64,000 bases of DNA. Source: an uncultured Acidimicrobiaceae bacterium. Its GTDB lineage: Bacteria; Actinomycetota; Acidimicrobiia; Acidimicrobiales; MedAcidi-G1. The stretch covers positions 35,316-99,315 of the forward strand of contig CAXGYF010000002.1 of NCBI GenBank assembly GCA_964013895.1. The letters are read 5' to 3'. Below, piece by piece: positions 11,880 through 35,599 of the stretch (its first letter is position 1; each line of letters opens with the position of its first letter). Position numbers and translations under genes: made by a program. Under the pieces are notes generated by a model that saw nothing but the letters and a program-made list of their open reading frames with translations, did no database searches and was not told the origin of the DNA.

Positions 11880-11952
11880 AATTTAAATGATTCCGAAACT
11901 GTTAAACACCTTACGAGATTAATAGGTGTATAACTTTCATAGACTCCAACGG

Positions 11953-16352: not shown

Positions 16353-17603
16353 ATGCGATATTCAGCAACCGAGAAACTGAGAAATGCAGATCGCATGATA
16401 TTTGGCGATGTATTAGCTGGAATAAGTGTCGCTTTGTTACTTATTCCTCAGTCGATGGCTTATGCAGAACTCGCAGGTCTGCCACCAGAGATTGGTCTTT
16501 TTGCATCAGCTTTACCGCCTATTTTTGCGGCCTTTGTAGCTTCGTCTCCTTATTTACAGACAGGACCTGTAGCACTTACGAGTCTTCTAACTCTAGGTGC
16601 GCTGAACGGACTAGCTGATTCGGGCACAACAGAATATATAGAACTTGCAGCCTTACTGGCTTTAATAGTTGGAATTTCAAGACTTATATTTGGATTTCTT
16701 AGAATGGGTAAGATCGTTTACTTCATGAATGCACCTGTAGTAACAGGTTTCACTTCGGCAGCCGTAATATTAATTATTGCTTCTCAGATCCCTAAAACTG
16801 TAGGAAATGAGATTAATGTAAATGGGACTTTAAATCGTGCTTATAGGTCTTTAAGTGATTTTGAAAATTGGCAAATCGAATCCTTGCTGATCTCTGGAGT
16901 GACTATTTTCCTTATAATTGCAGGCAAATATCTACACAAGCTTTTCCCCGGTGCACTTCTTGTACTTGTTGGTGGCTCTATCTATAGCCATTTGGGTGAT
17001 TACAGCGGCCCTGTTGTAGGAGAAATACCGACGGGCATTCCTAATCTTGGATTCGAATTGCCTTGGGGTTCCATAGATGAGCTTTTACTATCAGGAATTG
17101 TTATTGCTCTTATTGGTTTTGCTGAACCGGCTTCAATCTCAAGAATATTTGCTTCTCAAGAGAATCAGCGGTGGAGCGCTAACCGTGAATTTGTTAGTCA
17201 AGGACTAGCAAATGTGGCCTCTGCATTTTCAGGCGCGCTACCTGTTGGAGGTTCATTTAGCAGATCTTCTCTCAACAAGCTCTCCGGCGCTCAAAGCAAG
17301 TGGTCGGGTTTGGTCACCGGGGTCGTGGTTTGTGTTTTCTTACCATTCGCTAATATTTTGGATCGTCTACCAGAAGCGACCCTCGGTGCTGTAGTGATTG
17401 CTGCAGTAATAGGACTTATTCGGCCAAAAAAACTCTTATTTTCAATTCGCGATTCTGCTTCCGAAGGATTTATCACTTGGGGTACTTTTATCGCAACACT
17501 GGCTCTTTCGCCTCATGTGGAAAGAGGCGTTCTTGTTGGAATCGGAATTTCGATAGTTGTCAGTATTTATAAAAAATCAAGACTAGGTGATAACCAGATC
17601 TGA
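16353..17603 (+). CDS. SulP/SLC26 anion permease, TM domain only (no STAS)
   Basis: GDVLAGISVALLLIPQSMAYA, NREFVSQGLAN and GGSFSRS; ends right after the last TM. Confidence 0.88.
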   Translation: MRYSATEKLRNADRMIFGDVLAGISVALLLIPQSMAYAELAGLPPEIGLFASALPPIFAAFVASSPYLQTGPVALTSLLTLGALNGLADSGTTEYIELAALLALIVGISRLIFGFLRMGKIVYFMNAPVVTGFTSAAVILIIASQIPKTVGNEINVNGTLNRAYRSLSDFENWQIESLLISGVTIFLIIAGKYLHKLFPGALLVLVGGSIYSHLGDYSGPVVGEIPTGIPNLGFELPWGSIDELLLSGIVIALIGFAEPASISRIFASQENQRWSANREFVSQGLANVASAFSGALPVGGSFSRSSLNKLSGAQSKWSGLVTGVVVCVFLPFANILDRLPEATLGAVVIAAVIGLIRPKKLLFSIRDSASEGFITWGTFIATLALSPHVERGVLVGIGISIVVSIYKKSRLGDNQI

Positions 17604-17611
17604 AGTTCCCG

Positions 17612-18238
17612 TTAGGACCAAACTTTTGTCAATGATTCAACATCGGTCAATGTTGCTAAAACCGCAAGAGTGTTTTCAATAATAGTTTTTCCATATTCGA
17701 TCGGTACACCTGCTACAGCATCTATAGGGACTACAACTTGATAACCATTGTTTATTAGATCGAAAACACAATTTTGCACAGCAACGTTTAAGGAGACTCC
17801 ACTTACAATCACCGTAGAAATTTCTTCGTTTCTGAGCAAAGCGTCTAATTCGGTTCCCGATGTCGGTGAGAGACCATGAAATCTAGGAAGAAGGACATCT
17901 AGTTCGCTATCGAAACCTACTTCTTTTATCGGTTCTACTGTTTCAGTATCAGGCAACTGTTTTATAGGTGAGCGGCGAGCGGCTCCAAAAAGTCGAGCAT
18001 TATTATTTGACCCCCAACCATCTTCTCTTACCATTGCTAATCCATGAATTACTTTTATTTCTGAATTTCTTGCTGCTTGTGCGAGTTTTCCTAAGTTAGC
18101 AATAATGTTTTTAGAGGCTTCTGCAAGAGCTGGAAAACTAGACTTTTCGCCTATAACTCCATTTTGGCACTCCACCAAAAGTAAGGCAGTGTGATTAGGA
18201 TCTACTAAATCTTTAATTTCAAGATGTTCGCTACTCAT
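17612..18238 (-). CDS. Isochorismatase-fold protein with non-canonical active site
   Basis: TALLLVECQNG, VIVSGVSLNVAVQN and GYQVVVPIDAVAG. Confidence 0.82.
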   Translation of the reverse strand: MSSEHLEIKDLVDPNHTALLLVECQNGVIGEKSSFPALAEASKNIIANLGKLAQAARNSEIKVIHGLAMVREDGWGSNNNARLFGAARRSPIKQLPDTETVEPIKEVGFDSELDVLLPRFHGLSPTSGTELDALLRNEEISTVIVSGVSLNVAVQNCVFDLINNGYQVVVPIDAVAGVPIEYGKTIIENTLAVLATLTDVESLTKVWS

Positions 18239-20591
18239 ATTTGACTCCAGAATCTCTCAATAAGTCAATCCATCTTGTTCCCGCATCAGGAGCTAGTTCT
18301 CCAGGAACATAAGTAACCGAAATTAAACTTCCTTTGTAAGGAAATGGTCCGTGCCGCTCATACAAGGGCCATGAAACTGGCGATCTCCTGTCAATCCCAA
18401 CATCTATTCCTTCAAATGGAGCCATTGCAGTCAGCACAGGAAGATCAGGAGTCTCTGCAACTATGGATCCATCTACATATACCTGCGTATTCCATTTCAA
18501 ATCTCCCATCGCGTCGACTCTCAATTTTATTTCTTTAACACCGTCCGCAAGACTCCCGCAAGAAACCTCCGTCATAGTCCCATACCCGTTATGAACATGA
18601 TGAAGCTCACCGTTTTCTATGTACATGGAGTATCCACCTCCCTGATCCCCGTGAGCCACCAGTATCCCTTCGTCGCCTTTCTTATAATCGAGTGAAATTA
18701 TGATTTCAAAAGAACGAAAATTTATCAACTTGAGAGATCTGTATCTTTCTACTGTCGGCGTGCCAGGCAAGAAAGACTGAGTTTGTTCAAGTTCTTCCTC
18801 CCATTTCGGGCGGACGATATTTTTTAAACCTGTACCTTCATCAAGTGGAAACACCTGATTGGCCCAGGCTTCTTGTTCCCAAATATCTTTCAACTCAGCT
18901 AAAACTTCAGGGTGTGTATCCGACAGGTCGTTTGTTTCTGTCGGGTCGGTTGATAGGTCGAAAAGTTCCCATTTGTCTTCTGCGAATGAAGTTCGTTTCT
19001 GATGACAGGTTACTGCTGACCATCCTTCGCGATAAATACCCCTGTGCCCTTCTTGCTCGTAATACTGCAATGTGTGGGTGCTTTCAGCTTCTTCATTATT
19101 CATTGATTCAAGAAAGCTACTACCGTTAGGTGGTAACAACTTTTGACCTTTTCGTTCGTCTGGTATGTCAATTTCGAGCATTTCAAGAATCGTGGGCAGA
19201 AGATCAGTCACATGTTGATATTGCTTTCTGATTGATCCCGCGTCCTCCAAACCATCAGCTTTTGAAATTACTAAGGGAACTTGGTGGCCACCTTGATGTG
19301 TGTTTGTTTTATACAAGCGGAATGGAGTATTAGAAGCCATTGCCCATCCATTTGGATAATGAGCGAGTGCTTGTGGCCCCCCTAGTAGGTCCAACCTTGA
19401 ATTATCAGCTTCTACCGAATCAAGAGGATTCTCTCTAACTTGGCTGATCAGGGTTCTAAAATATGCCGAAGTTCCATTATCTAGGCCTTCCCTGCTCGCT
19501 CCATTATCCGAAGTGAAAACAACAACGGTGTTTTCCCATTCTCCCATAGCTTCTAATTCTTGTCGTAGCCTTCCAAAATTCTGGTCGACGTTGTCAACCA
19601 TTGCTGCATAAATCTCCTGATAACGGGCAAAAGTCTCTTTTTCCATTTCACTTAATTCATCCCATGGGCTTACTGCATAGTTCCTTTCTGTATTCCTTGG
19701 AGGTAGAACTGTTCCCTCGGGGATCAAACCAGATGAAATCTGGCGTTCGTAACGCTCTGCTCTGATTTTGTCCCATCCTCTGTTATACATTCCTTCATAT
19801 TTCTTTATGTCTTTTTCAGGAGCTTGAAGAGGGGCGTGTACAGCTCCATGGGAGAAATACATAAACCACGGTTTTTTTGGATGCCCTGTCCTCACTTCCT
19901 TTATCATGTCCAGGGCATGATCTGTTAGGTCATTAGTAAAAAAGTAGTTTTCTGGATACGAGTCAACCTGCACTACATGATTGTCTTCATATAAGCGATG
20001 CGGTTGATGAAAGTTTGTAAAACCATCAAGTATCCCGTAATAACGATCAAAGCCGCGTTGACAAGGCCAAGAATTTTTTGGGCCAGCTTCTGAAAGAGTG
20101 TTATCTGGCGTTAAATGCCACTTGCCAACCATAAGGGTTGCCCATCCATTGTCTGAAAGAATCTCAGCCAAAGTTGCAGTATCGCTTCGAATGGATGCTG
20201 CATAGCCAGGAAAACCAGGATCTGCGTGGCAGACCGTAGCTAATCCAGCTAAATGAGAATTTAAACCAGTAAGTAATGAAGCACGTGTTGGGGAACACAT
20301 TGGATTCACATGAAAATTTGTATATCGAATACCTTCGGCTGCTAGAGCATCCAAATTAGGTGTTTCAATCTCAGAACCATAAGAACCTAGATCTGAAAAA
20401 CCAAGGTCATCACATAGAACTATAAGAATGTTTGGTGCGTCTTCGTGAGGCTCATTTCTTTTTGGCCAAGCTGGTGAGGAAGTCGCGTGTAAGCGTCCGA
20501 TTTCTCCTTCGAATCCCGAGTACGCTTTATTCAAATTTTTTTCTTTGTCATTTCTGCCGGTTATTTTTTTGAACATGTCAGTTGCTTTCAT
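18231..20591 (-). CDS. Arylsulfatase (long mycobacterial AtsA/B/D type)
   Basis: DDLGF, formylglycine motif CSPTRASLLTG, GKWH, SDNG and a C-terminal LamG-like extension. Confidence 0.93.
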   Translation of the reverse strand: MKATDMFKKITGRNDKEKNLNKAYSGFEGEIGRLHATSSPAWPKRNEPHEDAPNILIVLCDDLGFSDLGSYGSEIETPNLDALAAEGIRYTNFHVNPMCSPTRASLLTGLNSHLAGLATVCHADPGFPGYAASIRSDTATLAEILSDNGWATLMVGKWHLTPDNTLSEAGPKNSWPCQRGFDRYYGILDGFTNFHQPHRLYEDNHVVQVDSYPENYFFTNDLTDHALDMIKEVRTGHPKKPWFMYFSHGAVHAPLQAPEKDIKKYEGMYNRGWDKIRAERYERQISSGLIPEGTVLPPRNTERNYAVSPWDELSEMEKETFARYQEIYAAMVDNVDQNFGRLRQELEAMGEWENTVVVFTSDNGASREGLDNGTSAYFRTLISQVRENPLDSVEADNSRLDLLGGPQALAHYPNGWAMASNTPFRLYKTNTHQGGHQVPLVISKADGLEDAGSIRKQYQHVTDLLPTILEMLEIDIPDERKGQKLLPPNGSSFLESMNNEEAESTHTLQYYEQEGHRGIYREGWSAVTCHQKRTSFAEDKWELFDLSTDPTETNDLSDTHPEVLAELKDIWEQEAWANQVFPLDEGTGLKNIVRPKWEEELEQTQSFLPGTPTVERYRSLKLINFRSFEIIISLDYKKGDEGILVAHGDQGGGYSMYIENGELHHVHNGYGTMTEVSCGSLADGVKEIKLRVDAMGDLKWNTQVYVDGSIVAETPDLPVLTAMAPFEGIDVGIDRRSPVSWPLYERHGPFPYKGSLISVTYVPGELAPDAGTRWIDLLRDSGVKYE

Positions 20592-21804
20592 CTGTTCTTA
20601 TACGCAAAGCGTAAGCCAAAAGAATCATCATTAGACAAACTGCGATCATCAGCCACAAGACTCCGTCGTACCCAAAAGCTGAATCAGCCATTCTTCCTGC
20701 TGATACTGGCCCTAGGACGCCGCCAATTTCCGCGCTAGCAAACCAAAGACCGTAAGCTGTTCCCATTTGTTTTACATTCAATTTAGGTGATTCCATCAGG
20801 GCGAGAATTACTAGAGGTATTAATGCTGATCTAGAACCGGCAATCATTACTGATATCGGAGTCGTATAGCTCGGCAGAAACATAATTGCGAGCAAAGAGA
20901 TAACAATTACTAAAAGGATGCAAATGAGAATAGAAGAAAAGTTTTCTCTTCGTGTCCGCGAAGGGATTAATAGTGATACAAGAATTCCTATTCCCAAACT
21001 TGCTGCTGTCCAGTTTGATGCCGCCATTGAAGAAAACCCAATATGTTCTCTAAGGATTTCAGGCATCCACCCCCCCAGACCATGAGATAAAAAGAATACG
21101 GTGACCCCTAGAAGAAATATGACTTTAATTTCTTTTGAAACGACTATAGATTTCCAAATTAGGATCGTTTTGCTTCCATTTTTTTTCCCAACATGATCTT
21201 TTTGAATTTTAAATTCAGCTATAAATATCCAAAAAATCAAGGCAAAAGCGATTACGAATGTTTCAATTGCAATTGTCCAACGCCAGGAGTTTGTTAAAGG
21301 CATCAAAAGTGAATTGGACATGACGAGGACTAAAATGCTCCCGACTGCCGGGGCAGCTGTGTAAGCACCAACCGCAAACTTTCTTTCCCTTTCATTCGTG
21401 AACCAAAAACCAACTGCAGTCGGAGCGCAAGCAGATACTAAAGGACCTCCAATACCAAAAAGAGCAACTGCTATACATAAAGTTGTCAGATCATTAGCAA
21501 AAGAACGTGTGATCCCGCTTATAAAAACCAGAGAAGCTCCAATTGTCATTGAATACCCAACGCCTAAACGATCTATTACCCGTCCCGCTATTGGAGATGT
21601 GACTATATAGACCAATTGCCATGTCCCTAATGCAATTCCTATTTCCCCACGAGTCAGATTCAAATCTGACCGTATTTCTCCTACAAGAGGGGCTAGCGAC
21701 ATAGCCACCATGCCGAATCCAAGGTACACAAAGAAAACACCAGAAAAAATAACCCATCTGTATGAATCGTTGTGTACAGGTTCTTGAAGAAATTTCTTAC
21801 GCAC
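20578..21804 (-). CDS. MFS transporter (CynX/NimT-like)
   Basis: About 12 TMs; motif A GRVIDRLG; start moved from 21843 to GTG 21804. Confidence 0.85.
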   Translation of the reverse strand: MRKKFLQEPVHNDSYRWVIFSGVFFVYLGFGMVAMSLAPLVGEIRSDLNLTRGEIGIALGTWQLVYIVTSPIAGRVIDRLGVGYSMTIGASLVFISGITRSFANDLTTLCIAVALFGIGGPLVSACAPTAVGFWFTNERERKFAVGAYTAAPAVGSILVLVMSNSLLMPLTNSWRWTIAIETFVIAFALIFWIFIAEFKIQKDHVGKKNGSKTILIWKSIVVSKEIKVIFLLGVTVFFLSHGLGGWMPEILREHIGFSSMAASNWTAASLGIGILVSLLIPSRTRRENFSSILICILLVIVISLLAIMFLPSYTTPISVMIAGSRSALIPLVILALMESPKLNVKQMGTAYGLWFASAEIGGVLGPVSAGRMADSAFGYDGVLWLMIAVCLMMILLAYALRIRTDESN

Positions 21805-21854
21805 GTCAAATAATCTCACAACAATGAAGAAATGATCGTGCATTAGAACAAAAC

Positions 21855-22730
21855 TTGCGCGATCCTGTTCTAGTGAATGAATTAATCTTAGATTATGACT
21901 CTTTAGATTCTTTGAACAGACCAGTCCTTATTGTGGCTTTTAAAGGGCTTTTTGATGCCAGTGGTTCAGCCACCTCTGCTCTTGAATGGCTAATCGAAAA
22001 GTCAGAGTCTGAGAATATTGGAGAAATTGACTCTGAAACTTTTTTTGACTTCACTCAAGAAAGACCTCTAATCAGTTTCGATAAAAATGGGGAAAGAGCT
22101 CTTACATGGCCTACAAATAAAATAGTAGCAATGAAAACCAAAGAAAATGAAAGAGACCTTCTTGCTATTTCTGGAGTTGAACCACACCTTCGCTGGCGCA
22201 CATTTAGCGAACTTTTAATAGAACTAGTTAACAAATCAAATGCTGAATCTGTTCTTACACTCGGGTCAATGGTCGGAATGACGCCACACAGTCGACCTTT
22301 GACGGTCACAGGGAGCAGTACTAATCCAGAGCTTGCAGAACGCTTGCATCTGGAAAAACCTTCTTATCAAGGGCCAACTGGAATAGTTGGCGTGCTTCAC
22401 GATGCACTCGACCGTTCAAAGATTCCAGTTATATCACTTCGAGTTTCAGTTCCTCACTATGTTCCAGATGCACCTAATCCAAAAGCGACAAGAGCTCTTC
22501 TTAGACGCTTTGAACAAGTAACTGGAGTTACGACAGAGTATGAAGAACTTGATGGACCCGCTGCTGATTGGCAAAAACAAGTAGATTCTGCCGTGGCCAG
22601 TGACGATGAAATAACTGCCTATGTAACCCGCTTAGAAACAGCTATTGATGAAGATGAAAACCTTTTACCTTCAGGAGATGATCTGGCCGCTGAATTTGAA
22701 GCTTTCCTTCGTGAACAAGACCCAGATTAA
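21855..22730 (+). CDS. PAC2 family (proteasome assembly chaperone-like) protein
   Basis: AFKGLFDA, FFDFTQERP, GVEPHLRWR, YQGPTGIVG, VPHY and acidic C-terminus AEFEAFLR. Confidence 0.9.
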   Translation: MRDPVLVNELILDYDSLDSLNRPVLIVAFKGLFDASGSATSALEWLIEKSESENIGEIDSETFFDFTQERPLISFDKNGERALTWPTNKIVAMKTKENERDLLAISGVEPHLRWRTFSELLIELVNKSNAESVLTLGSMVGMTPHSRPLTVTGSSTNPELAERLHLEKPSYQGPTGIVGVLHDALDRSKIPVISLRVSVPHYVPDAPNPKATRALLRRFEQVTGVTTEYEELDGPAADWQKQVDSAVASDDEITAYVTRLETAIDEDENLLPSGDDLAAEFEAFLREQDPD

Positions 22731-22748
22731 GATCGATACAGGAGAAAT

Positions 22749-23450
22749 ATGAATCAGAATAATACCATGGACCTCAAAGAGCTTCTAGCAGTAGCCGAAC
22801 AAGCTGGCCGGTCATTAATAGATTCTGCTGAAAAAGATCTTGACGCAACTGTCCCTACTTGTCCGGAATGGAACAACTTAGAGCTTCTTAACCATATGAA
22901 AATGGTGTGGTGGTTCGCGGCTTCGCAAATCAATGCCGGAAACGAAACTGAAAGAACTGCTCCATCTGGTGAAATGAAAAACTCGCCCTTAGAGCAACTT
23001 GAAACTTTATTAAAAGCATGTCAGGTCAATGATTTTTCGTCTCCTTGCTGGTCGTGGACGACTAATAAAACTGTTGGTTTTTGGGTTAGACGCATGGCTC
23101 ATGAAAACACGGTTCACAATTGGGATTCAGAAGGAACTTTAGACTCACGTTCTTCAATTTCGACGTTATTAGCTCTTGATGGAATCGAAGAGAAACTCTT
23201 TCTGTATCCTGCAGATACCGAATTTCCTACTGCTTCAATTCACTTGCATTGCACTGACTGTGAAGGTGAATGGATGCTGGCTCTATCAAGTGGTGAACTT
23301 GAAATAAAAAGAGAACACGGTAAAGGCGATGCAGCTGTAAAAGGCAGAGCGGAAGATATCCTTCTTTACCTTTGGGGTCGAGGGCAGGAAAATCTTGAAT
23401 GCTTCGGAGATGAAGAGGTGATTAATACTTGGGCACGCATTGGCCCTTAA
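22749..23450 (+). CDS. MDMPI/DinB-superfamily (mycothiol-dependent maleylpyruvate isomerase-like) protein
   Basis: VPTCPEW...LLNH, FWVRRMAHENTVHNWD, DGIEE and an SCP2-like C-terminus. Confidence 0.85.
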   Translation: MNQNNTMDLKELLAVAEQAGRSLIDSAEKDLDATVPTCPEWNNLELLNHMKMVWWFAASQINAGNETERTAPSGEMKNSPLEQLETLLKACQVNDFSSPCWSWTTNKTVGFWVRRMAHENTVHNWDSEGTLDSRSSISTLLALDGIEEKLFLYPADTEFPTASIHLHCTDCEGEWMLALSSGELEIKREHGKGDAAVKGRAEDILLYLWGRGQENLECFGDEEVINTWARIGP

Positions 23451-24644
23451 TCAGGAAAGTTCCGCTCCTACAATGCCTACGAAAGAGACCATCTCACCTG
23501 GATAACCACCCAAGTTATGTACAAGTGCTTGCTGGGATTGTTCAAGAGAAATTGACCTATCAGCTGGCGCCTCTCCTCTTAGTTGCAACCATGTCTCATA
23601 GAACATTCTTAGTCCACTGGCACCCACTGGGTGACCGAAGGCTTTAAGTCCTCCATCAGTATTTACAGGAATTTCCCCATCTATATCGAAAGACCCATCA
23701 AGCACTTCCTGCCATGCTTTACCTTTTTCACAAAAACCCAAGTCTTCCATAAGAATCATCTCTGTTGGGGTGAAACAGTCATGAACTTCCGCCATGGCTA
23801 GTTCTTTTCTCGGTTCCGTAATCCCAGCTTGCATATAGGCGTCTTCAGCTGCAACGGCGCATTCGGGAAGAGTGGTGAAATCGAAATCTGGATCCACTAA
23901 ACCGCTGCTATCTCCAGCAACTACAGAAAGCGCCTTTATATATAAAGGTTTATCAGTATATTTATGAGCATCTTCGGCTCTAACTACTATGGCAGCCGCT
24001 GCCCCATCAGCAACGCCGGCACAATCCATAACTGAGAGGCGTCCAGCAATCGATGGCATTTCACAGATCTTCTCAGCCGAAATCTCACGTCGAAATTGAG
24101 CTAGTTCATTTCTTGACCCATTGAAATGGTTTTTTTGAGCTATGCGAGCCACGACGTATCTGAGCTCGTCTTCATCAACTCCGTATCGCTTCGCATACGC
24201 AGGGATAATCAGACTAAACATGGCTGCTGCTGTCAATGTCCGATTTGTGCCATCAGTCGGAACAGGAAAAGCATTGAGACCTTGGTAACCGCTATCTTTT
24301 ACTTTTTCTGCTCCTAGCGCCATTGCAGAGTCATACGCACCAGAAGCTACTGCGTAACAAGCTTGACGCAGAGACTCAGACCCGGTGGCACAATAATTTT
24401 CTACACGGGTAACAGGTTTGCCTGAAAGTCTCAAAGGTGTAGCTAAAGCTATTCCTGATGCCGCGGACTGCGAAGTTCCGAACCAATAAGCATCTATCAG
24501 GTCAGTCTCAAGACCCGCTGATTTTGTAGCTTTTTCCGATGCCTCGATAATGAGATCGTCAAGTGATTTGTCCCAATGTTCACCAAAATTCGTACAACCC
24601 ATTCCTACAATTGCGACTTGATCTTTAATGCCATGTGACGCCAT
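23451..24644 (-). CDS. SCP2-type/archaeal-type thiolase (PhlC-like)
   Basis: VENYCATGS (Cys), EVHDCFT, GHPVGASG and HNLGG. Confidence 0.9.
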   Translation of the reverse strand: MASHGIKDQVAIVGMGCTNFGEHWDKSLDDLIIEASEKATKSAGLETDLIDAYWFGTSQSAASGIALATPLRLSGKPVTRVENYCATGSESLRQACYAVASGAYDSAMALGAEKVKDSGYQGLNAFPVPTDGTNRTLTAAAMFSLIIPAYAKRYGVDEDELRYVVARIAQKNHFNGSRNELAQFRREISAEKICEMPSIAGRLSVMDCAGVADGAAAAIVVRAEDAHKYTDKPLYIKALSVVAGDSSGLVDPDFDFTTLPECAVAAEDAYMQAGITEPRKELAMAEVHDCFTPTEMILMEDLGFCEKGKAWQEVLDGSFDIDGEIPVNTDGGLKAFGHPVGASGLRMFYETWLQLRGEAPADRSISLEQSQQALVHNLGGYPGEMVSFVGIVGAELS

Positions 24645-26060
24645 TTAAGACTTCCCTCTTTCTCGCCTTATCGGTCTTGCTTTCCAAAAGTAGTTGTGGA
24701 TTCCATCAGCTGTATACAAACAACGAAACGTCATTTCTACCCGATCACCGATTTCAATTTTCTCTGGGTCTGCGTCTGCAAGTTCGACGGGAAGTCGCCC
24801 CCCATCTTCGAAATTAACTACAGCGAAAACTACAGGAGAGTTTGGAGAGTAAACCAAATTATCAACTGTGAAAGTCTCGATCGTTCCTATCGAATCAGCC
24901 ATAGGTAACTGTTCCATGTCATCAATACCGCCGCCTTTTATACCGATGCGAGATGGTGGCATGTGGACTATTCCTGTCGTTGCATCTTTGGATGCAACAA
25001 AACCCATTTTCCAATCATTTCGTCTCATAGCAGCTGATGAGGAAGGCCTAGTCGGAGAAGGGCGATTAGGGAGTTGACTGTCTAACAATCCACGCCATGA
25101 AAGATACTTACCATAGGGAACTGGTGACTGATTTTCTATTTGCTCAGAAACAGGAAAAGAATTTCTCCGATTTTCAATTTCTTGGGTGGTTCGAAAGAAA
25201 AGAATGTCGCAACCATCAGCTAGAACTATTAATGCAACTACCTCATCTGGTTTTGCTTGATCAAGAAAATTAGCCAGAAGAAGTGACGGCTGGGCGGCAC
25301 CTGCATTCCCAATCTTTCCAGTCAAATCATCAGCTACTTCCACATTAAGTAAAGGAGTTGATTTAGCTACAGCACGAGAATGAAGCCCTGATATAAGTGC
25401 AAAGTTTATATCTTCAGTTTTCATGCCGACTTTCTTTAAGGCTTCATTCCAGGCTCTGTCAACCAGTGGCTTATATGCTTGTTCCCCAAACCGCTCTTCC
25501 CATACTTGAGAATAAGAACTTCCTGGCACGCGCCACCTATCAGTAAAATCAGAAGTTATTGAAACTCCACCTAGGTACTCTGCGAGTAAAGCCCCTTGTT
25601 CGTCTGTTCCGATTAATAGAGCTGTAGCAGCATCTCCACCGGAAGATTCTTCAGTTCCGCCTGATGGCCCTGTTCTTAAATCCGCAGCAACTACCAAAGT
25701 CGAGAGATCACTTTCTAAAGCATTGGATAAAGCACCTACTGCCGACCGGGTTGAATTCCCGAAGTCGACTACTTCTACAAAATCATCCAACTGAAGGGCT
25801 GAGTGTATATTTGTTGCGTTTGTTTTATCCATGTATGCAGGAACAACAGTTGAGAAGGACAGCTTTTTCGGATTCATGTCTGATCCTTTTAAAGCACTTC
25901 GGGCAGCCTCAACTCCCATGGTGGTGGTATTTTCATCATAAGATGCAACGGATCTAGAGCCCTTATTTGACCCTTTACCTGTGAATTCAACTATTGATGA
26001 ACGCAGCAGGCAACCTCTGGGTATGTAGGCGCCATATGAAATAATTCCATGGACTCCCAT
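24645..26060 (-). CDS. HMG-CoA-synthase-like domain fused to a DUF35 OB-fold
   Basis: GIISYGAYIP, DENTTTMGVEAA and GGDAATA, then a C-terminal OB-fold GTIETFTVD...IGDRVEMTFR...NYFWKARP. Confidence 0.85.
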   Translation of the reverse strand: MGVHGIISYGAYIPRGCLLRSSIVEFTGKGSNKGSRSVASYDENTTTMGVEAARSALKGSDMNPKKLSFSTVVPAYMDKTNATNIHSALQLDDFVEVVDFGNSTRSAVGALSNALESDLSTLVVAADLRTGPSGGTEESSGGDAATALLIGTDEQGALLAEYLGGVSITSDFTDRWRVPGSSYSQVWEERFGEQAYKPLVDRAWNEALKKVGMKTEDINFALISGLHSRAVAKSTPLLNVEVADDLTGKIGNAGAAQPSLLLANFLDQAKPDEVVALIVLADGCDILFFRTTQEIENRRNSFPVSEQIENQSPVPYGKYLSWRGLLDSQLPNRPSPTRPSSSAAMRRNDWKMGFVASKDATTGIVHMPPSRIGIKGGGIDDMEQLPMADSIGTIETFTVDNLVYSPNSPVVFAVVNFEDGGRLPVELADADPEKIEIGDRVEMTFRCLYTADGIHNYFWKARPIRRERGKS

Positions 26061-26176
26061 TATTAAGCCCCCAATTGCCTATTATCTGAATTAGTAAGAA
26101 TCAACTTAATCCAATCCAATGAACCTTAAGGAAGTATCCTAGGCTTAAATCTTTATTCTCCCGACACAAGGAGTTC

Positions 26177-27430
26177 TTGATGGATTTAGGAGATATATCA
26201 AATGAAGACGCCGTCAAGTACGGAAAACCACTTGATGGTGTGAAAATACTTGCGGCCGAGCAGATGCAGGCCCTACCATTTGCTACTCAATTACTAGCCC
26301 GCTTGGGCGCTGAAGTAGTGAAAATTGAGCACCCAATCAAAGGTGAGTCTGCACGTGGTTCTGTACCTTTCATGAACGATCCATATGGGAATCCTGTAGG
26401 AGCTACTTTCCTTCGAAATAACTTAAATAAAAAAAGTGTTGGAATTGATCTCTCGACATCAGAAGGTCAGGATCTTTTTCTTCGTTTAGTTCCAAATTTT
26501 GATGTAATCGGCGACAATTTTAAACCAGGAACCATGAAAAAATTTGGACTTGATTACAAATCAATCAACTCTAAGTATCCAAATGTGATAGTTATATCTA
26601 TTTCAGGTTTTGGGAACTCCGGAGACTCGCCTTATCAGAACTGGCCAGCTTACAATTCAGTGGCCGAAGCAATGTCAGGCCTTTACGATTTCAAGCGCCG
26701 TGACGGAGAACCCCCCATAGTTAATCCGATGGGTGCAGTAGGTGATATTGCAACGAGTTTATTCGGTGTTATCGGGATACTTGCTGCTCTTAGACATAGA
26801 GAAGATACAGGTAAAGGTCAATACATTGATATAGCCATGTTTGATTGCATGGCGTCTTTAGCTGATGTTGCTATAAATTTTCATTCAATGGGAATCCCAC
26901 GAGAGCCAAACCCAGCACCTTATGTCATTGCTCCCTTTCGCTGTAGTGACGGCTATTTAGTTCTTCAATTTGTTCGGGAGCATCAGTTCGAGAACCTCGC
27001 AAATCTGATCGACAAAACTGACTGGATCGGAGACCCGCGTTTTCAAGAGAGGTCAGGATGGGGAGAACATTTACATTCAGACATTATTCCTGCATTAGAA
27101 GAATGGTCTAAAAACCGAACTAGATCTGAGACTTCAAGTTTGCTCGCTGAGGCAAACGTGGCATCGGGGCCTGTTTTAACTACCTCAGAAGTGGTTGAGG
27201 ACCCACACTTAGAAGAAAGAAATATGATCGTGTCATTGCCTAGGACCGATGAGATAAGCGACCCTGTTCTTCTACCCGGAAATCCTATAAAAATGTCAAA
27301 AGTAGCTGAAGGGCCCGAAATCAGAGTTCCATGGGTTGGAGAGCATACAAATCAGGTTCTTACCGAAGAACTAGATCTCAGCGTTACAGAACTAGAAGAT
27401 CTTAGAAAAATGGGCGTTATTAGCCAATAA
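26177..27430 (+). CDS. Family III CoA-transferase (CaiB/BaiF)
   Basis: PLDGVKIL, GAEVVKIE, NLNKKSVGIDL, NFKPG, catalytic VGD and GEHT. Confidence 0.93.
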   Translation: MMDLGDISNEDAVKYGKPLDGVKILAAEQMQALPFATQLLARLGAEVVKIEHPIKGESARGSVPFMNDPYGNPVGATFLRNNLNKKSVGIDLSTSEGQDLFLRLVPNFDVIGDNFKPGTMKKFGLDYKSINSKYPNVIVISISGFGNSGDSPYQNWPAYNSVAEAMSGLYDFKRRDGEPPIVNPMGAVGDIATSLFGVIGILAALRHREDTGKGQYIDIAMFDCMASLADVAINFHSMGIPREPNPAPYVIAPFRCSDGYLVLQFVREHQFENLANLIDKTDWIGDPRFQERSGWGEHLHSDIIPALEEWSKNRTRSETSSLLAEANVASGPVLTTSEVVEDPHLEERNMIVSLPRTDEISDPVLLPGNPIKMSKVAEGPEIRVPWVGEHTNQVLTEELDLSVTELEDLRKMGVISQ

Positions 27431-27432
27431 AT

Positions 27433-28716
27433 TCATTCCTCAATATATTTATCTAGAAGCTGAGCGACTGTCATCTCTACCGGAATTTTTTCAACTCCGA
27501 TTACGCGATCAATCACTTCTTGCATGTTGTATATTCTTCGCTCCTGATAACACAAAGGCGTTCCGTCATAGGTTGGGGACTCCATCGCTTTCTGCATTGC
27601 ATCAAGATTCCAAACGTCTTCATCTATTACTCCAGCAAATTCAGATATCCGTTGTTTCCATGCTTCGGGCGGGTCACCATCTCCCCAATCTGGAGCGTAG
27701 TGATATATACGAATCTTAGTTTTATCAATACCTGCGGGGAAAAATAGCATGACAGGAAAGCCTGTAGCCGCTAGGGGCGTAATGAAATTTGGAAAGATCG
27801 TAAATGAATAACTAGTGCAATGGACAATAGGATGAACGGTTGAAATGTTTTCAAGCCCTAACGGGTCTTTCACTGTCTTAAAATCTTTCCATGATTCCAT
27901 TCCAAGCTTCTCTACCATTTGTTTTGAACGTGGAACTACCATTCTGGAATTACCGTGTTTTAAAAGACCCATCGTTCCACCGCGCGAGTCAAGACTTGTC
28001 CATCCCCCACGATCATGTATGAAGCGAAAATGGTAGACCTCTTGAAATGCTTCGATTGCAACTTTCCAGTTGCAATTGACTTCACGGTGATCTGTGCCCA
28101 CTAAACGAAGATTCTCACATTGATACTGTTTCATTTCTTCAGGGATTTTTCCTAAGAAATCAATCAGAGGAGATGCGTTTGGATTCACGTTGATCCAGAT
28201 CCATCCCCCCCATGTGTCACAACTTATTTCTGGTAATCCTCGGTCTTCCTTACATAGGTCAACGAAATCCCTTTCGTCTGGTACAGCTAAAAGTTCGCCG
28301 TTATCTATTCCGTATGTCCACGAATGGTACTGACACTGTAAACGACGTATGGTGCCTTTTTTCTCTCTTACAACCGGTGCTCCGCGATGTCTGCAGGTAT
28401 TTGAAAAACATCGAATTTTATTATCGTTCCCTCTTACTACTATTAATGGGATTCCGGTCTCTTCAAATAGAAAGTAGTTTCCTGGATCGGGTATGTCTTC
28501 AACTCGACCCGCTGCAAGCCAACTGTTATTCCATAAATATTTTTGTTCTAGCTCATAAAAATCTTCGTCCGTATAACGCGCCGAAGGGATATCAGGAAAC
28601 TGAGGGAAATTTTCTGGTGGGGCTTTTCTGTCTAATTCATACTCCATGTCTGCAACTAGTCGATCAACTAATTTTTGATCAAGTAAAAATTCACTCATAA
28701 TTTTCCCCTTAAGCAA
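27433..28716 (-). CDS. Rieske non-heme iron oxygenase alpha subunit
   Basis: NTCRHRG...CQYHSW Rieske cluster; EAFQEVYHFRFIH and ED iron ligands. Confidence 0.93.
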   Translation of the reverse strand: MLKGKIMSEFLLDQKLVDRLVADMEYELDRKAPPENFPQFPDIPSARYTDEDFYELEQKYLWNNSWLAAGRVEDIPDPGNYFLFEETGIPLIVVRGNDNKIRCFSNTCRHRGAPVVREKKGTIRRLQCQYHSWTYGIDNGELLAVPDERDFVDLCKEDRGLPEISCDTWGGWIWINVNPNASPLIDFLGKIPEEMKQYQCENLRLVGTDHREVNCNWKVAIEAFQEVYHFRFIHDRGGWTSLDSRGGTMGLLKHGNSRMVVPRSKQMVEKLGMESWKDFKTVKDPLGLENISTVHPIVHCTSYSFTIFPNFITPLAATGFPVMLFFPAGIDKTKIRIYHYAPDWGDGDPPEAWKQRISEFAGVIDEDVWNLDAMQKAMESPTYDGTPLCYQERRIYNMQEVIDRVIGVEKIPVEMTVAQLLDKYIEE

Positions 28717-30942: not shown

Positions 30943-32424
30943 TTACTCCTTTTCTTGCAATTTATGACGTAAAACCTTACCAAGTGCGTTCCTAGGTAAT
31001 TCTTTCACAATTACCAATCTTTTAGGAATTTTGTAGGGGGCTAAATATTGTGAAGCATGTTTTCTGACTTCGGCGATATTAATACTGTTAATTCCTTTTT
31101 CCATCACAATCCAAGCTACGACTTCCTCTCCCCACTCTTGTGATTTGACTCCTGATACTGCCGCTTCAGCAATTTCTGGGTGTGCTTGCATGACTTCGTC
31201 AACTTCTTGTGGGTAAACATTTAGTCCACCAGTAATTATTAGCTCTTTTATACGACCGTTAATCGTCACATAGTTATCGTCAGATACCTCTGCTATGTCT
31301 CCTGTTTTAAACCACCCTGAGTTAAAAGAATCATTAGTTTCTTTCTGTTTAGACCAATACCCTTTGAATACAGATTCACCACGGACTAATACTTCCTTGC
31401 TTTCTTCCTCTATTTGAATCTCTACACCTGGCAAAGGAAATCCAACTGAGCCAGCACGTCGTTCACCTATATAAGGGTTGGAAATCGTAAGCATCGTCTC
31501 GGTGGTTCCGTAACGTTCCAGTACATCAACTCCTCCTTTGTCTTTTAATTGTTGATGTAAATCTGCTGGTAGAGGTGCAGAGCCAGAAACACATAAACGC
31601 AATGAGGCTAGCTGACTGATTCTTTCATCTTCAACAAGTCTTTGATACATGGTTGGGACTCCAAAAAACATCGAACAATTATTCTCAGCTATTTCAGAAA
31701 ATACCAAATCTTTGTCGAAACCTTCCTGCAGAACAGCTGAGCCTCCGACTAGCAATGTTCCGTGTAAACCTATACCCATTCCATGAATATGGAATAAAGG
31801 TAGACATAGCAAAAGACGGTCTGACTCTGTCCACTCCCATGCTCTAGCGACTGAAAGGGCTCCAGCTAATAACGATCTCTGGGTGTGGGTAGCTCCTTTG
31901 GGTTTGCCAGTAGTTCCTGATGTGTATGCGATCAAGGCCGGGTCTTCTGGTTTAGCAAGATCCAAATCTGGATTGGGTCCGCTTCTTGTTTCAACTGCTG
32001 TGGAAGAGACAAATAATTCAGAATCGATTGAATTTAGAAGTTTGTGCCATTCCTCTTGATCTACTAAGGCTGCTCGTGGTTTCGAATCTTCAATTAGAAA
32101 TGCTAATTCTGTTTCCGTGTATGAGATATTTACAGGCACAACAACAAGACCGAGTCTTAAACATGCGACGTGAGAAATGACTAAATCTAGCGAATTTTCT
32201 CCAGCGATTAGAACACGATCTCCGGGGAGTAGCCCAGAATTAGCTAGGTTAGATGCTGTTTTGGAAGTCAGATCTAGAAAACTTCCTCGATCTATTTCAC
32301 GACCATTGAAAGAAAAAAGTTTTCTTTCGGGTTCTATTTCTAAAGTTTTTACCCAAGACCCCACAAGGGTTTCTTCGTCTGGTATCCGTAATTTATGCCC
32401 TGATATTACAAGTTGAGTTCCCAT
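30943..32424 (-). CDS. Acyl-CoA synthetase (AMP-binding, MatB-like)
   Basis: YTSGTTGKPKG, ERYGTTE, FKTGD and PRNALGKV. Confidence 0.92.
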   Translation of the reverse strand: MGTQLVISGHKLRIPDEETLVGSWVKTLEIEPERKLFSFNGREIDRGSFLDLTSKTASNLANSGLLPGDRVLIAGENSLDLVISHVACLRLGLVVVPVNISYTETELAFLIEDSKPRAALVDQEEWHKLLNSIDSELFVSSTAVETRSGPNPDLDLAKPEDPALIAYTSGTTGKPKGATHTQRSLLAGALSVARAWEWTESDRLLLCLPLFHIHGMGIGLHGTLLVGGSAVLQEGFDKDLVFSEIAENNCSMFFGVPTMYQRLVEDERISQLASLRLCVSGSAPLPADLHQQLKDKGGVDVLERYGTTETMLTISNPYIGERRAGSVGFPLPGVEIQIEEESKEVLVRGESVFKGYWSKQKETNDSFNSGWFKTGDIAEVSDDNYVTINGRIKELIITGGLNVYPQEVDEVMQAHPEIAEAAVSGVKSQEWGEEVVAWIVMEKGINSINIAEVRKHASQYLAPYKIPKRLVIVKELPRNALGKVLRHKLQEKE

Positions 32425-32541: not shown

Positions 32542-33753
32542 ATGGAATTCGGTATTTTCAGCAACGGTTACATACCTGGACCGGCTGCCCATGACACAGA
32601 GTCCGAACATACGGAACTAATGCGTGAAGCTAGTTACGGGGTCTTAGCTGATAAAAACAACTGGAAATATATGTGGTTTGGCGAGCACCATGCTCTTACT
32701 GAATACAGTCACATGTCAGCCCCATCACCGTTGATGGGATGGGTAGCAGCACAAACAGACTACATACATCTTGGTTCGGCAATCACGAGTTTGCCGACGA
32801 ACAAAGAGCATCCGGTTCGCATCGCCGAAAGAGCTGCAATGCTTGATCATGTAACCGAAAATCGCTTTGAATTTGGAACTGGGCGCGGTGCAGGAAGCCA
32901 TGAACTTCTAAGTTTTAACGTCACAGATCCTAGTGAAACTAAAGCACAGTGGGATGAGGTTATTCGCGAGATACCTCGAATGTGGGAACAGAAAGACTAT
33001 GACTTTAAAGGAGAATTTTTTACTGTACCGACTCCACACAATATCCTTCCTAAACCATACGGTAAAGGCCACCCCCCTCTTTGGGTGGCTTGTGGGAATC
33101 CGCCAACATTTGCAAAAGCAGGATCACTTGGCATTGGTGCCATAGCATTCAACTTCGAACCTATTCATAACCTCAAAGGGCGTGTTGACGCATACAAAGA
33201 GGCTATTCAGGATCCAGCAGAACAAATTGGACAGTTTAAAAACGACAATGTCATGATGACTAACGCTGTTATTTGCCTTGAAAATCGAGATGAAGCAAGA
33301 GCTATCGCTAAAACAAAAGGTAGAGGCTACCTAGTAACCATGGTCAACATGTATCACGATACGATGCCCAAATCCCCCGACGCTGTGACTTGGCCTGACT
33401 CACCAATAGATCCGAACTGGACAGATGAAATGCTTGACTGGGCAATCGGCGAGGGATACATGCTCTGCGGAACACCTGAAGAGGTGTGTGAGCAACTGGT
33501 TCGTTACCAAGACGTAGGTTGCGATCAGGTCGTGTTCGGTTTACCAATCGAAGGAATGGCTCATGAACAGGTCCTGGAAATGCTCGAAATTTTTGGGCAA
33601 CGTGTGATTCCTGAATTCGACAAAGACCCTATTCATTCAACAGATCGCTATAGAGCAGAAGCGCAAAGAAAGTTTCCTGACTTTCAGTATGAACTTCCAG
33701 AAGACATATCGGTTTCTGTTTTGCCTTCGAATGCCCTATTGCCACTCGGATAA
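32542..33753 (+). CDS. LLM (luciferase-like) flavin/F420-dependent oxidoreductase
   Basis: WFGEHH, IHLGSAI, HPVRIAERAAMLD, RFEFGTGRG, HPPLWVA and CGTPEEV. Confidence 0.9.
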   Translation: MEFGIFSNGYIPGPAAHDTESEHTELMREASYGVLADKNNWKYMWFGEHHALTEYSHMSAPSPLMGWVAAQTDYIHLGSAITSLPTNKEHPVRIAERAAMLDHVTENRFEFGTGRGAGSHELLSFNVTDPSETKAQWDEVIREIPRMWEQKDYDFKGEFFTVPTPHNILPKPYGKGHPPLWVACGNPPTFAKAGSLGIGAIAFNFEPIHNLKGRVDAYKEAIQDPAEQIGQFKNDNVMMTNAVICLENRDEARAIAKTKGRGYLVTMVNMYHDTMPKSPDAVTWPDSPIDPNWTDEMLDWAIGEGYMLCGTPEEVCEQLVRYQDVGCDQVVFGLPIEGMAHEQVLEMLEIFGQRVIPEFDKDPIHSTDRYRAEAQRKFPDFQYELPEDISVSVLPSNALLPLG

Positions 33754-34375: not shown

Positions 34376-35599
34376 TTATTCTGTTCTGCTGATTAACTCT
34401 TTAGTCAGGTCATCAACTGAAGCGGCTCCAGTTAAAGACATTGTCCTTTCAACCCCTTCATGAAGTAAATCAAGAACGTGGTCAACTCCCCTTTCACCAC
34501 ATGCTGCTAGAGCGTAAAGGTAGGGTCTTCCAGCCATGACTGCAGTGGCCCCTAAGGAAACCGCCTTCACGATGTCTGAACCTCTGCGGGCCCCGCCATC
34601 ACAAATAATCTCTAAACGGTCTTGAACCGCTTCAGCAACTTCTGGCAGTAGATCGAATGGTGTTGGCGCCTCGTCCAGTTGTCTTCCTCCATGGTTAGAG
34701 ATTGCAATTGCCTCCACGCCAGAGTCAACAGCAATTAAAGCATCCTCGACAGTTTGGATTCCTTTTATCAAAATTGGCCCTTTCCAGATAGATCTAAGCC
34801 ATTCAACATCCTTCCAAGAAAGACCAGGATCGAACTGAGATTTCATATGTTCTGCAAGATCAACTGCTGTTGAACCGTCAATAGAAGTTAGACCTTCAAC
34901 ATTTGCGAAACGAATAGGATCTGCTGTTAAAAAATCCCATGTCCAACCCGGATTTTTTACGCCATCAATTATCGTTCCAAGACCGATTTCGGGGGGCAAA
35001 GTGAATCCCCGTCGCACATCACGCTCTCGGCGTCCAAGAACTGCGGTGTCAACGGTGAGACACACTGCCTCAAAGCCTGCAGCGTCAGCTCTTTCAACAA
35101 GGTTTTTAACGACAGAACGGTCTTTCCATGTGTATATCTGAAACCAGAGACGAGAATCCTTTTCAGCTACTGATGCGCATTCCTCTATGGAACGTGTAGC
35201 CATTGTTGACAAGGTAAATGGAATACCTGCCCGAGTTGCTGCCCTAACAACCGCTAATTCACCTTCAGAATGTGCGATTCGAGTGAAACCTGTTGGCGCC
35301 AGAACAAGAGGGAAAGCTAACTTACGGCCGAACAAAGAAGTAGACGTATCGATATTCGCCATGTCTCTTAATACTCTGGGTTTGAACGAAACCTTTCTGT
35401 AAGCTTCAACGTTTTTCCGTAAAGTAATTTCATCTTCTGCGCCACCGTCTATATAGTCAAAAACTCCTATTGGGAGACGCCGTTTAGCCAATTTCCTCAA
35501 ATCTTCAACGTTTGCAGCTTTTCTAAGAAGTCGTTTTGTTCTGTTAATCTCCAACTTCCGGAACTTGACAACAGAACGAATACTGTTTACAAATGCCAT
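34376..35599 (-). CDS. FMN-dependent alpha-hydroxy acid dehydrogenase (L-lactate dehydrogenase-like)
   Basis: FDYIDGGA, LAPTG, LTVD, IKG, SNHGGRQ and DGGARRGSD. Confidence 0.92.
   Translation of the reverse strand: MAFVNSIRSVVKFRKLEINRTKRLLRKAANVEDLRKLAKRRLPIGVFDYIDGGAEDEITLRKNVEAYRKVSFKPRVLRDMANIDTSTSLFGRKLAFPLVLAPTGFTRIAHSEGELAVVRAATRAGIPFTLSTMATRSIEECASVAEKDSRLWFQIYTWKDRSVVKNLVERADAAGFEAVCLTVDTAVLGRRERDVRRGFTLPPEIGLGTIIDGVKNPGWTWDFLTADPIRFANVEGLTSIDGSTAVDLAEHMKSQFDPGLSWKDVEWLRSIWKGPILIKGIQTVEDALIAVDSGVEAIAISNHGGRQLDEAPTPFDLLPEVAEAVQDRLEIICDGGARRGSDIVKAVSLGATAVMAGRPYLYALAACGERGVDHVLDLLHEGVERTMSLTGAASVDDLTKELISRTE

Follow-up and report, generated by a model that had tools for sequence, protein, structure and literature searches.

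In a 64,000-nucleotide stretch of DNA from an uncultured Acidimicrobiaceae bacterium of the MedAcidi-G1 lineage (assembly GCA_964013895.1, contig CAXGYF010000002.1; the whole stretch is called the window here, and positions are those of the window), two minus-strand genes at 23451–26060 encode a relative of 3-hydroxy-3-methylglutaryl-coenzyme A (HMG-CoA) synthase (HMGS) fused to a DUF35 domain, P0002, and an SCP-x-type thiolase, P0001. Analysis of the two proteins, their relatives and the surrounding genes suggests that P0001 and P0002 probably assemble into a thiolase complex encoded by two genes, of the type known from bacteria as ACAT/HMGS-DUF35 (ACAT, acetyl-CoA acetyltransferase), with P0001 as the catalytic subunit and thiolysis as the predicted activity. 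The region is filled exactly by the two open reading frames (ORFs) in the ORF list, P0002 first (471 amino acids, 24645–26060) and then P0001 (397 amino acids, 23451–24644). As an earlier reading of the letters alone (the sequence-only reading) had noted, the genes abut: the TAA stop codon of P0002 runs straight into the start codon of P0001 (ATG), which is closely preceded by a purine-rich stretch, GAAAGAGGGAAG. Because of this junction and the purine-rich stretch before it, the layout points to a single putative operon with coupled translation.

Evidence for a thiolytic activity came from P0001. The protein scored 566.2 bits on NCBIfam NF004810 (PRK06157), above the 403-bit cut-off of that model, and contains the motifs NYC85ATGS, EVH288DCF and GH338P. 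The nucleophilic Cys85 (codon at 24390–24392) is invariant in 73 of 73 orthologs, the H288-D-C-F sequence (23772–23783) in 71 of 71 ungapped orthologs, and the G-H338-P motif with the second catalytic His (23628–23636) in all 72 aligned sequences, so that the Cys-His-His set read earlier in the thiolase is both present and conserved. HDCF is an instance of the HDxF motif of true SCP2-type thiolases, and it aligns with the HDCF of the archaeal thiolase. The relations of P0001 to PhlC, BbsB and Ltp2 were judged by ranked hidden Markov model, PDB and Foldseek scores. In the PDB sequence ranking, the thiolase of the archaeal complex (6esq_A) came first (1.2e-57), followed by other archaeal thiolases, zebrafish SCP2 thiolase and BbsB (5.6e-33); PhlC and its homologs (~1e-27 to 2e-28) ranked 12th to 14th, and Ltp2 (2e-21) and MucB (5e-21) were also matched. 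Foldseek searches with a model of P0001 gave the same ranking, with 6esq_A best (template modelling score, TM, 0.87) and with Ltp2 and Sal as detectable relatives. P0001 fell far under the cut-offs of the archaeal thiolase, BbsB and lipid-transfer-protein models, scoring 124.1 bits against a cut-off of 750 on the BbsB equivalog NF053628, 191 against 436 on NF006102 and 131 against 424 on NF004715. The ratio of nonsynonymous to synonymous substitution rates (dN/dS) of P0001 relative to genus relatives was ~0.05.

P0002 resembles HMGS in sequence and fold and has lost its catalytic residues. The HMGS-like thiolase-fold domain occupies residues 1–330 (25071–26060), a reading supported by alignment to 6esq_I and PhlA, column counts and Foldseek. 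Residues 5–326 scored 141.7 bits on the archaeal HMG-CoA synthase model NF003274, below its 244-bit cut-off, and the protein scored 87.9 bits on TIGR00748, below the cut-off of 353. The top PDB sequence match was 6esq_I, the HMGS chain of the archaeal complex (E 1.5e-18), and the second was PhlA (5m3k_A, 5e-14), with a PhlA homolog also among the best. The sequence-only reading had quoted two strings as lacking the catalytic Glu and Cys, and both were located, FSTVVPAY at residues 69–76 and FGNSTRSAVGAL at residues 100–111. In the pairwise alignment, C114 of 6esq_I corresponds to Thr104 of P0002 and H238 to a gap; E82 falls opposite a gap, or opposite Val if the alignment is anchored on the following Tyr. 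N270 is retained as Asn252, a position that is variable across the family. When columns were counted in 99 full-length family representatives, no conserved Glu, Cys or His was found around the HMGS catalytic positions; because these representatives conserve none of the three residues there, the loss is a trait of the family rather than the product of chance or of a shifted alignment. These comparisons confirmed that the HMGS-like domain, lacking the Glu, Cys and His of HMGS, is predicted to be catalytically dead.

Other parts of P0002 are strongly conserved. Near-invariant residues in the 99 representatives are D99, R105, D127, R129, E138, R177, R190, R346, D400, R446, Y457, W459 and K460. An AlphaFold2 model of P0002, built from a 39-sequence alignment, was compact and confident (predicted local distance difference test 94.5, predicted TM 0.94), and its best Foldseek match was the archaeal complex HMGS (6esq_J, TM 0.86, root-mean-square deviation 2.2). 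PhlA homologs (TM 0.82–0.84) and MucA (0.82) came next, and all of these outranked free-standing bacterial HMGS. Relative to same-genus relatives, the HMGS-like part had a dN/dS of 0.09–0.13 and the DUF35 part one of ~0.05; with values this low, the P0002 gene is under purifying selection and is not decaying. The fusion to a DUF35 oligonucleotide/oligosaccharide-binding (OB) fold, also proposed earlier, was borne out by a match of residues 391–446 (24723–24890) to PF01796, OB_ChsH2_C (E 6.1e-11), and of residues 354–464 to 6esq_E, the DUF35 chain of the archaeal complex.

One feature sets the DUF35 domain of this clade apart. The zinc ribbon that precedes the OB-fold (residues 355–378, 24927–24998) is degenerate in P0002, where D359, T362, G373 and G376 stand in place of all four Cys ligands. 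The CxxC...CxxC cysteines are present at all four columns in ~83% of the wider fused family, as counted in a representative alignment, and are missing in 80 of 80 Acidimicrobiia-type orthologs. The degenerate region is still modelled with high confidence by AlphaFold2.

The closest functional precedent comes from a recent study by Liao et al. (Nat Commun 2026), who described four functional states of HMGS/ACAT/DUF35 complexes (PMC12960953). The archaeal complex makes HMG-CoA, and replacing its catalytic tetrad abolished HMG-CoA formation. PhlABC and the newly described MucABC are Friedel-Crafts C-acetyltransferases whose HMGS-like subunit lacks the E-C-H-N tetrad; PhlC and MucB also lack the HDxF motif, a loss that separates acylases from true thiolases (PMC12960953). 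Genome mining in the same study found 1,030 bacterial loci, 1,001 of them without neighbouring polyketide synthase (PKS) or nonribosomal peptide synthetase (NRPS) genes. This PKS/NRPS-free majority was represented by Pseudomonas fluorescens PfACAT/HMGS-DUF35, which combines a fused HMGS-DUF35 protein, its tetrad dead, with an ACAT that carries Cys, HDxF and GHx. It cleaved acetoacetyl-CoA thiolytically and formed neither HMG-CoA nor acetoacetyl-CoA; the H294Y substitution in HDxF nearly abolished thiolysis, and acetoacetyl-CoA thiolysis was not observed for SmaATase or PpATase (PMC12960953). The authors saw PfACAT/HMGS-DUF35 as an evolutionary intermediate without a pathway (PMC12960953). A literature search for further work on the HMGS-DUF35 fusion returned nothing beyond this study.

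As far as can be read from the encoded proteins, the window pair is an exact match to the PfACAT/HMGS-DUF35 type in architecture and residue pattern: two genes, an HMGS-DUF35 fusion, a dead HMGS, a thiolase with Cys, HDxF and GHx, and no PKS or NRPS genes among the annotated window neighbours (9135–44584). It differs in that it comes from another phylum and keeps the Asn of the tetrad, and in that its clade lacks the DUF35 zinc Cys and is linked to a family III CoA-transferase. The archaeal complex, to which both proteins are matched best in sequence and in fold, shares Cys85, HDCF and GHP in the thiolase; it differs in having an active HMGS (E82, C114, H238, N270) and a separate zinc-binding DUF35, and in feeding the mevalonate pathway. 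BbsAB of anaerobic toluene degradation likewise combines an SCP2-type thiolase carrying HDxF with a DUF35 partner; it has no HMGS-like component, and its zinc-finger BbsA is separate, whereas the window DUF35 is fused and lacks the zinc ligands.

What the analysis shows is the gene architecture, the residue patterns, the family membership, a conserved gene order and purifying selection; from there we infer complex formation, a scaffold role for P0002, a coupling to the CoA-transferase and the nature of the substrate. A 3-oxoacyl-CoA would be attacked at its 3-oxo group by Cys85 of P0001, with the H288-D-C290-F loop and His338 acting as in SCP2-type thiolases, and CoA would release the products in a retro-Claisen cleavage. 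P0002, as a non-catalytic scaffold, would hold the thiolase dimer through its DUF35 OB-fold, and, as in the PhlABC and archaeal complexes, probably helps to form the CoA or substrate cavity where the two proteins meet. In the Acidimicrobiia, the divergent family III CoA-transferase would probably supply the substrate by loading CoA onto a carboxylic acid. The substrate itself may be a 3-oxo-acid or 3-oxo-dicarboxylate, a guess prompted by the transferase's nearest relatives and by the lack of dehydrogenase and hydratase genes at the locus. The thiolytic activity itself has been shown for the P. fluorescens complex of the same architecture (PMC12960953).

The gene contexts of the family argue for a catabolic role rather than none. 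The named members of the family belong to Acidimicrobiales, Rhodococcus, Mycobacterium, Bacillus, Sphingomonadaceae, Comamonadaceae, Azoarcus and Paraburkholderia. In Bacillus ectoiniformans, a ligase, the pair, an acyl-CoA dehydrogenase (ACAD), a hotdog protein, MaoC, a short-chain dehydrogenase/reductase (SDR) and a CoA-transferase form one run, and a metagenomic relative is similar. On plasmid pDK3 of Rhodococcus DK17, genes for a thiolase, an SDR and a crotonase accompany the pair, and upstream lie those for a CaiB-type transferase, an ACAD and an HMG-CoA lyase. Plasmids of Rhodococcus qingshengii, R. opacus PD630 and Mycobacterium avium carry enoyl-CoA hydratases, a ligase and Rieske alpha and beta genes with the pair, with a small ORF between Rieske beta and the pair, joined there in M. 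avium by an extra thiolase gene; on the two plasmids from Rhodococcus, the pair is followed by a hydratase and an ACAD. In Variovorax SRS16, Rieske alpha and beta, a hydratase, an SDR and a hydrolase lead to the pair, which is followed by hydratases, a 3-hydroxyacyl-CoA dehydrogenase, an ACAD and a CoA-transferase. Rieske genes adjoin the pair on a proteobacterial contig, and in sphingomonads and Azoarcus the pair is surrounded by SDR, MaoC, electron-transfer flavoprotein, CoA-ester lyase and ligase genes. Wherever dehydrogenase and hydratase genes adjoin the pair, the thiolase is evidently the enzyme that completes a beta-oxidation-like round. No PKS or NRPS genes were found in any examined context outside the window's clade, and all of these contexts were acyl-CoA catabolic. 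They therefore place in acyl-CoA catabolic clusters a family whose P. fluorescens representative had been viewed as having no pathway.

Within the Acidimicrobiia, the comparison covered 80 related loci and used targeted tblastn searches with defined neighbour proteins; de novo clustering of ORFs from these loci was dropped, spurious antisense ORFs being a problem in the high-GC genomes. The thiolase gene lies directly downstream of the HMGS-DUF35 gene in 70 of the 73 assessable loci. The neighbour with the best claim to a shared pathway is the divergent family III (CaiB/BaiF) CoA-transferase (26177–27430, plus strand), which is closest to CaiB/BaiF 4ed9, then to formyl-CoA transferase and to succinate-hydroxymethylglutarate CoA-transferase. 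The ORF is listed from a TTG at 26177; the ATG at 26180 is likelier to be the start, because AAGGAG lies six bases upstream of it. An alpha-methylacyl-CoA racemase identity was considered and rejected, racemases matching at 1e-23 and transferases at 1e-44 to 1e-54. An ortholog of at least 45% identity lies divergently upstream of the pair in 30 of 68 assessable loci and anywhere in the locus in 40 of 68, and in the window's family it occurs in every genus that carries the pair (g1, g3, g4, g5 and g6) and in none that does not (g2 and g7), a co-occurrence that amounts to few independent events because the genomes are kin. In g5, the CoA-transferase and HMGS-DUF35 genes are on separate contigs. 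The link to a CoA-transferase made in the sequence-only reading is thus upheld, and the enzyme is likely to be the activating enzyme of the same pathway as the thiolase pair. The 116-bp AT-rich intergenic region between the CoA-transferase gene and the operon (26061–26176) presumably holds a shared promoter or regulatory region for the divergent transcription units. In ~20 of 55 relatives the pair comes with a second set of genes, made up of an ACAD, a second CoA-transferase, a hotdog protein, MaoC and another ACAD. This extended cluster resembles the pathway of BbsAB, which starts with a family III CoA-transferase and continues with an ACAD and a hydratase.

Several observations weigh against the proposed thiolytic complex or limit how far it can be taken. 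The link to PfACAT/HMGS-DUF35 rests on shared architecture and motifs, and cleavage of acetoacetyl-CoA in vitro does not by itself reveal which substrate is used in the cell. Without its zinc ribbon, the DUF35 domain could bind its partners differently. The extended cluster is lacking in the window's genus and has no ortholog in the window's genome; it therefore cannot explain the local pathway or how a 3-oxoacyl-CoA would arise there.

The alternative that survives best, while still unlikely, is removal of a side chain as in the ipf system, in which an aryl- or alicyclic-alkanoic acid would be converted to its CoA ester, oxidized by a Rieske enzyme and relieved of an acyl-CoA by the pair. To our knowledge, ipf has no HMGS-like domain. 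In ibuprofen-degrading sphingomonads, the SCP-x thiolase and DUF35 protein IpfDE work alongside a CoA ligase and a Rieske dioxygenase and are described as releasing propionyl-CoA (PMC9195938). The fused pairs of Rhodococcus, Mycobacterium and Variovorax are flanked by ipf-like gene sets, with the order ligase, Rieske alpha, Rieske beta, small ORF, pair on the R. qingshengii, R. opacus PD630 and M. avium plasmids and with Rieske genes adjoining the pair in Variovorax SRS16 and on the proteobacterial contig. In the window, a gene for an AMP-binding acyl-CoA ligase (30943–32424, minus strand) and one for a Rieske oxygenase alpha subunit (27433–28716, minus strand) lie upstream on the same strand as the pair, and the sequence-only reading had placed both next to it. 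They do not share one operon with the pair, however, since MsrA, DinB-like and DsbA-like genes and the opposite-strand CoA-transferase separate the ligase and Rieske genes from it, and only within the genus is the arrangement kept, the Rieske gene adjoining the pair at 6 loci there. The window Rieske protein is 23–27% identical to the Rhodococcus and Variovorax alpha subunits, in its N-terminal part only; its nearest named relatives are N-demethylating enzymes such as GbcA, with a score far below the cut-off, and no beta subunit, ferredoxin or reductase was found among the annotated neighbours (window 9135–44584). The ligase and the Rieske oxygenase are thus better described as neighbours than as partners.

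Even less probable is the PhlABC- or MucABC-like Friedel-Crafts C-acyltransferase that the sequence-only reading had favoured, in which an acetyl group on the Cys of the thiolase-like subunit would be passed to an aromatic or enolic acceptor. The architectural half of that reading stood. Like PhlABC of Pseudomonas protegens and MucABC of Streptococcus macacae, the window system combines an HMGS-like part without Cys and Glu, a thiolase that bears the catalytic Cys and a DUF35 domain, and can be described as PhlA and PhlB fused, with a PhlC-like partner. In PhlC, the residues that bind the acceptor are His56, Tyr124 and the lid residue Trp211. In the PhlABC structure, catalysis involves residues of PhlC alone, and PhlA is missing both Cys and Glu (PMC6392133). 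The second-ranked sequence match of P0002 to PhlA, the high structural scores of PhlA homologs and the presence of a Rieske oxygenase nearby are also consistent with C-acylation. The chemical half did not stand: the thiolase keeps HDCF, as do all orthologs, and scores above the NF004810 cut-off, and the Friedel-Crafts reading is unsupported because loss of this motif marks the PhlC and MucB acylases (PMC12960953). In sequence and fold alike, PhlC and MucB are more distant from P0001 than the archaeal thiolase and BbsB are. The known acylases are encoded by three separate genes and are associated with a type III PKS (phlD) or with NRPS-PKS genes, whereas no type III PKS (PF00195) was found in the 92%-complete host genome and no PKS or NRPS genes lie among the annotated neighbours. 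The residue pattern of P0001 goes with thiolysis in P. fluorescens, an activity not observed for PpATase and SmaATase (PMC12960953).

There is slightly less still to be said for a retro-aldolase like Ltp2-ChsH2(DUF35) or Sal-Shy(DUF35), which would cleave a 3-hydroxyacyl-CoA without a dehydrogenase step. In those systems, too, an SCP-x-fold enzyme is held by a DUF35 domain fused to another protein, and Ltp2 and Sal are detectable structural relatives of P0001. The extended Acidimicrobiia cluster, with two ACADs, a hotdog/MaoC pair and no SDR, resembles the steroid side-chain set ChsE1E2, ChsH1H2 and Ltp2. In the aldolases, however, DUF35 is fused to a MaoC hydratase and not to an HMGS-like domain, the lipid-transfer-protein models scored well below cut-off on P0001, and the active-site residues differ: in Ltp2 and Sal the nucleophile is replaced by Gly, and HDCF by YDHF or YDCY (PMC12329534), whereas Cys85 and HDCF are invariant in P0001 and its orthologs. 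Biosynthetic formation of acetoacetyl-CoA or HMG-CoA, as in the archaeal mevalonate complex, is close to refuted, since the best PDB matches of both proteins are the archaeal thiolase and HMGS but P0002 lacks the Glu, Cys and His of the tetrad, replacement of which abolished HMG-CoA formation in the archaeal complex, PfACAT/HMGS-DUF35 made neither product (PMC12960953), and no HMG-CoA reductase (PF00368) was found in the 92%-complete genome, in a search in which control genomes behaved as expected.

The thiolytic ACAT/HMGS-DUF35 complex thus remains the preferred explanation of the window pair, and the family to which it belongs is very large and almost unstudied. A search with P0002 returned 6,501 clusters at 90% identity among 8,000 candidates scored, and 503 clusters with E <= 1e-30 when clustering was at 50% identity; a betaproteobacterial member used as query added at least 4,430 further 90% clusters. 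Related loci were sought with a 12-member alignment of closer relatives, and more than 590 matching stretches in species-representative genomes were among the matches listed. The closest loci among the matches listed were in marine Acidimicrobiales metagenome-assembled genomes, one of them labelled MedAcidi-G1. With a Variovorax homolog as query, the best 120 matches were of Comamonadaceae/Burkholderiales type, with no Pseudomonas protein among them. At eight fused HMGS-DUF35 loci from three phyla (Actinomycetota, Bacillota, and Alpha- and Betaproteobacteria), all partner thiolases scored 575–686 bits on NF004810, so that this model appears, on these scores, to identify thiolases paired with fused dead-HMGS/DUF35 proteins in different phyla. 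The thiolase is far more conserved than its partner: identity to Bacillus ectoiniformans is 58% for the thiolase and 33% for P0002, and to Rhodococcus sp. DK17 it is 63% and 44%, a difference that fits a catalytic thiolase with a structural partner. Within the window's genus the pair occurs in 10 of 10 genomes; two further genera of the same family yielded no match (0 of 3 genomes each), and about half of the remaining families sampled in the order have it. In four same-family genomes the P0002 match has one in-frame TGA, which is probably read-through of the natural stop at a variable C-terminus.

The host genome (1.73 Mb, 92% complete) contains one fused HMGS-DUF35 gene and one thiolase above the NF004810 cut-off, and no true HMGS was found in it. 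MedAcidi-G1 is described as oxidizing fatty acids and using the glyoxylate bypass (PMC4337565), and given this bypass acetyl-CoA from thiolysis could be assimilated. That a streamlined ocean genome keeps the pair and one CoA-transferase suggests a substrate relevant in seawater. A broader proposal, which we put forward tentatively and consider rather less than evenly likely, is that orphan bacterial HMGS/ACAT/DUF35 loci provide the thiolytic step of beta-oxidation-like routes for bulky or carboxylated acyl-CoAs, with the marine Acidimicrobiia having a minimal two-step module. In this module, an enzyme like SUGCT or formyl-CoA transferase would activate a 3-oxo (di)carboxylic acid, the zinc-free scaffolded thiolase would split the product into CoA esters of central metabolism, and the dead HMGS cavity would help to bind the distal part of the substrate. 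If so, the orphan loci would not be evolutionary left-overs. The recently characterised ACAT/HMGS-DUF35 type is itself already known; the zinc-free DUF35, specific to this clade, and the catabolic contexts across the family are what the window and its relatives add. For annotation, the database names "HMG-CoA synthase" and "acetyl-CoA acetyltransferase" invite a wrong assignment to the mevalonate or ketone-body pathways, and the HDxF motif offers a quick discriminator between thiolytic complexes and PhlABC-like acylases.

The host genome holds seven DUF35 OB-fold domains, many for a streamlined genome, each beside an SCP-x-type thiolase. Besides the window pair, this makes five further thiolase/DUF35 loci, on numbered contigs of the assembly (C4:63986–65869, C29:6515–7974, C4:24928–27982, C10:8598–10022 and C8:2877–4321), and the thiolase frame on C29 contains one TAG.

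On the downstream side, the neighbours of the pair are DinB-like, PAC2, major facilitator superfamily (MFS) transporter, sulfatase, isochorismatase-like and SulP genes; on the upstream side they are the CoA-transferase, Rieske alpha, MsrA, DinB-like, DsbA-like and acyl-CoA ligase genes already described. The downstream block (16353–23450) comprises SulP, an isochorismatase-like hydrolase, a 786-amino-acid sulfatase, MFS, PAC2 and DinB/MDMPI-like genes, and its order is kept beside the pair in two more distant relatives, whose P0002 orthologs are 58–61% identical. At 23448–23453, the thiolase gene (minus strand, stop TGA) meets the convergent DinB-like gene (plus strand, stop TAA); their stop codons abut with zero intergenic bases, which leaves no space for a terminator hairpin between them. 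A 329-amino-acid ORF between a release-factor gene and rho (38726–39715, minus strand) had no Pfam match at E <= 1e-5. The window also contains genes for a CofC-like guanylyltransferase of F420 biosynthesis (11926–12516), a luciferase-like monooxygenase (32542–33753) and an FMN-dependent alpha-hydroxy-acid dehydrogenase (34376–35599), which hint at flavin- or F420-dependent oxidation chemistry near the locus.

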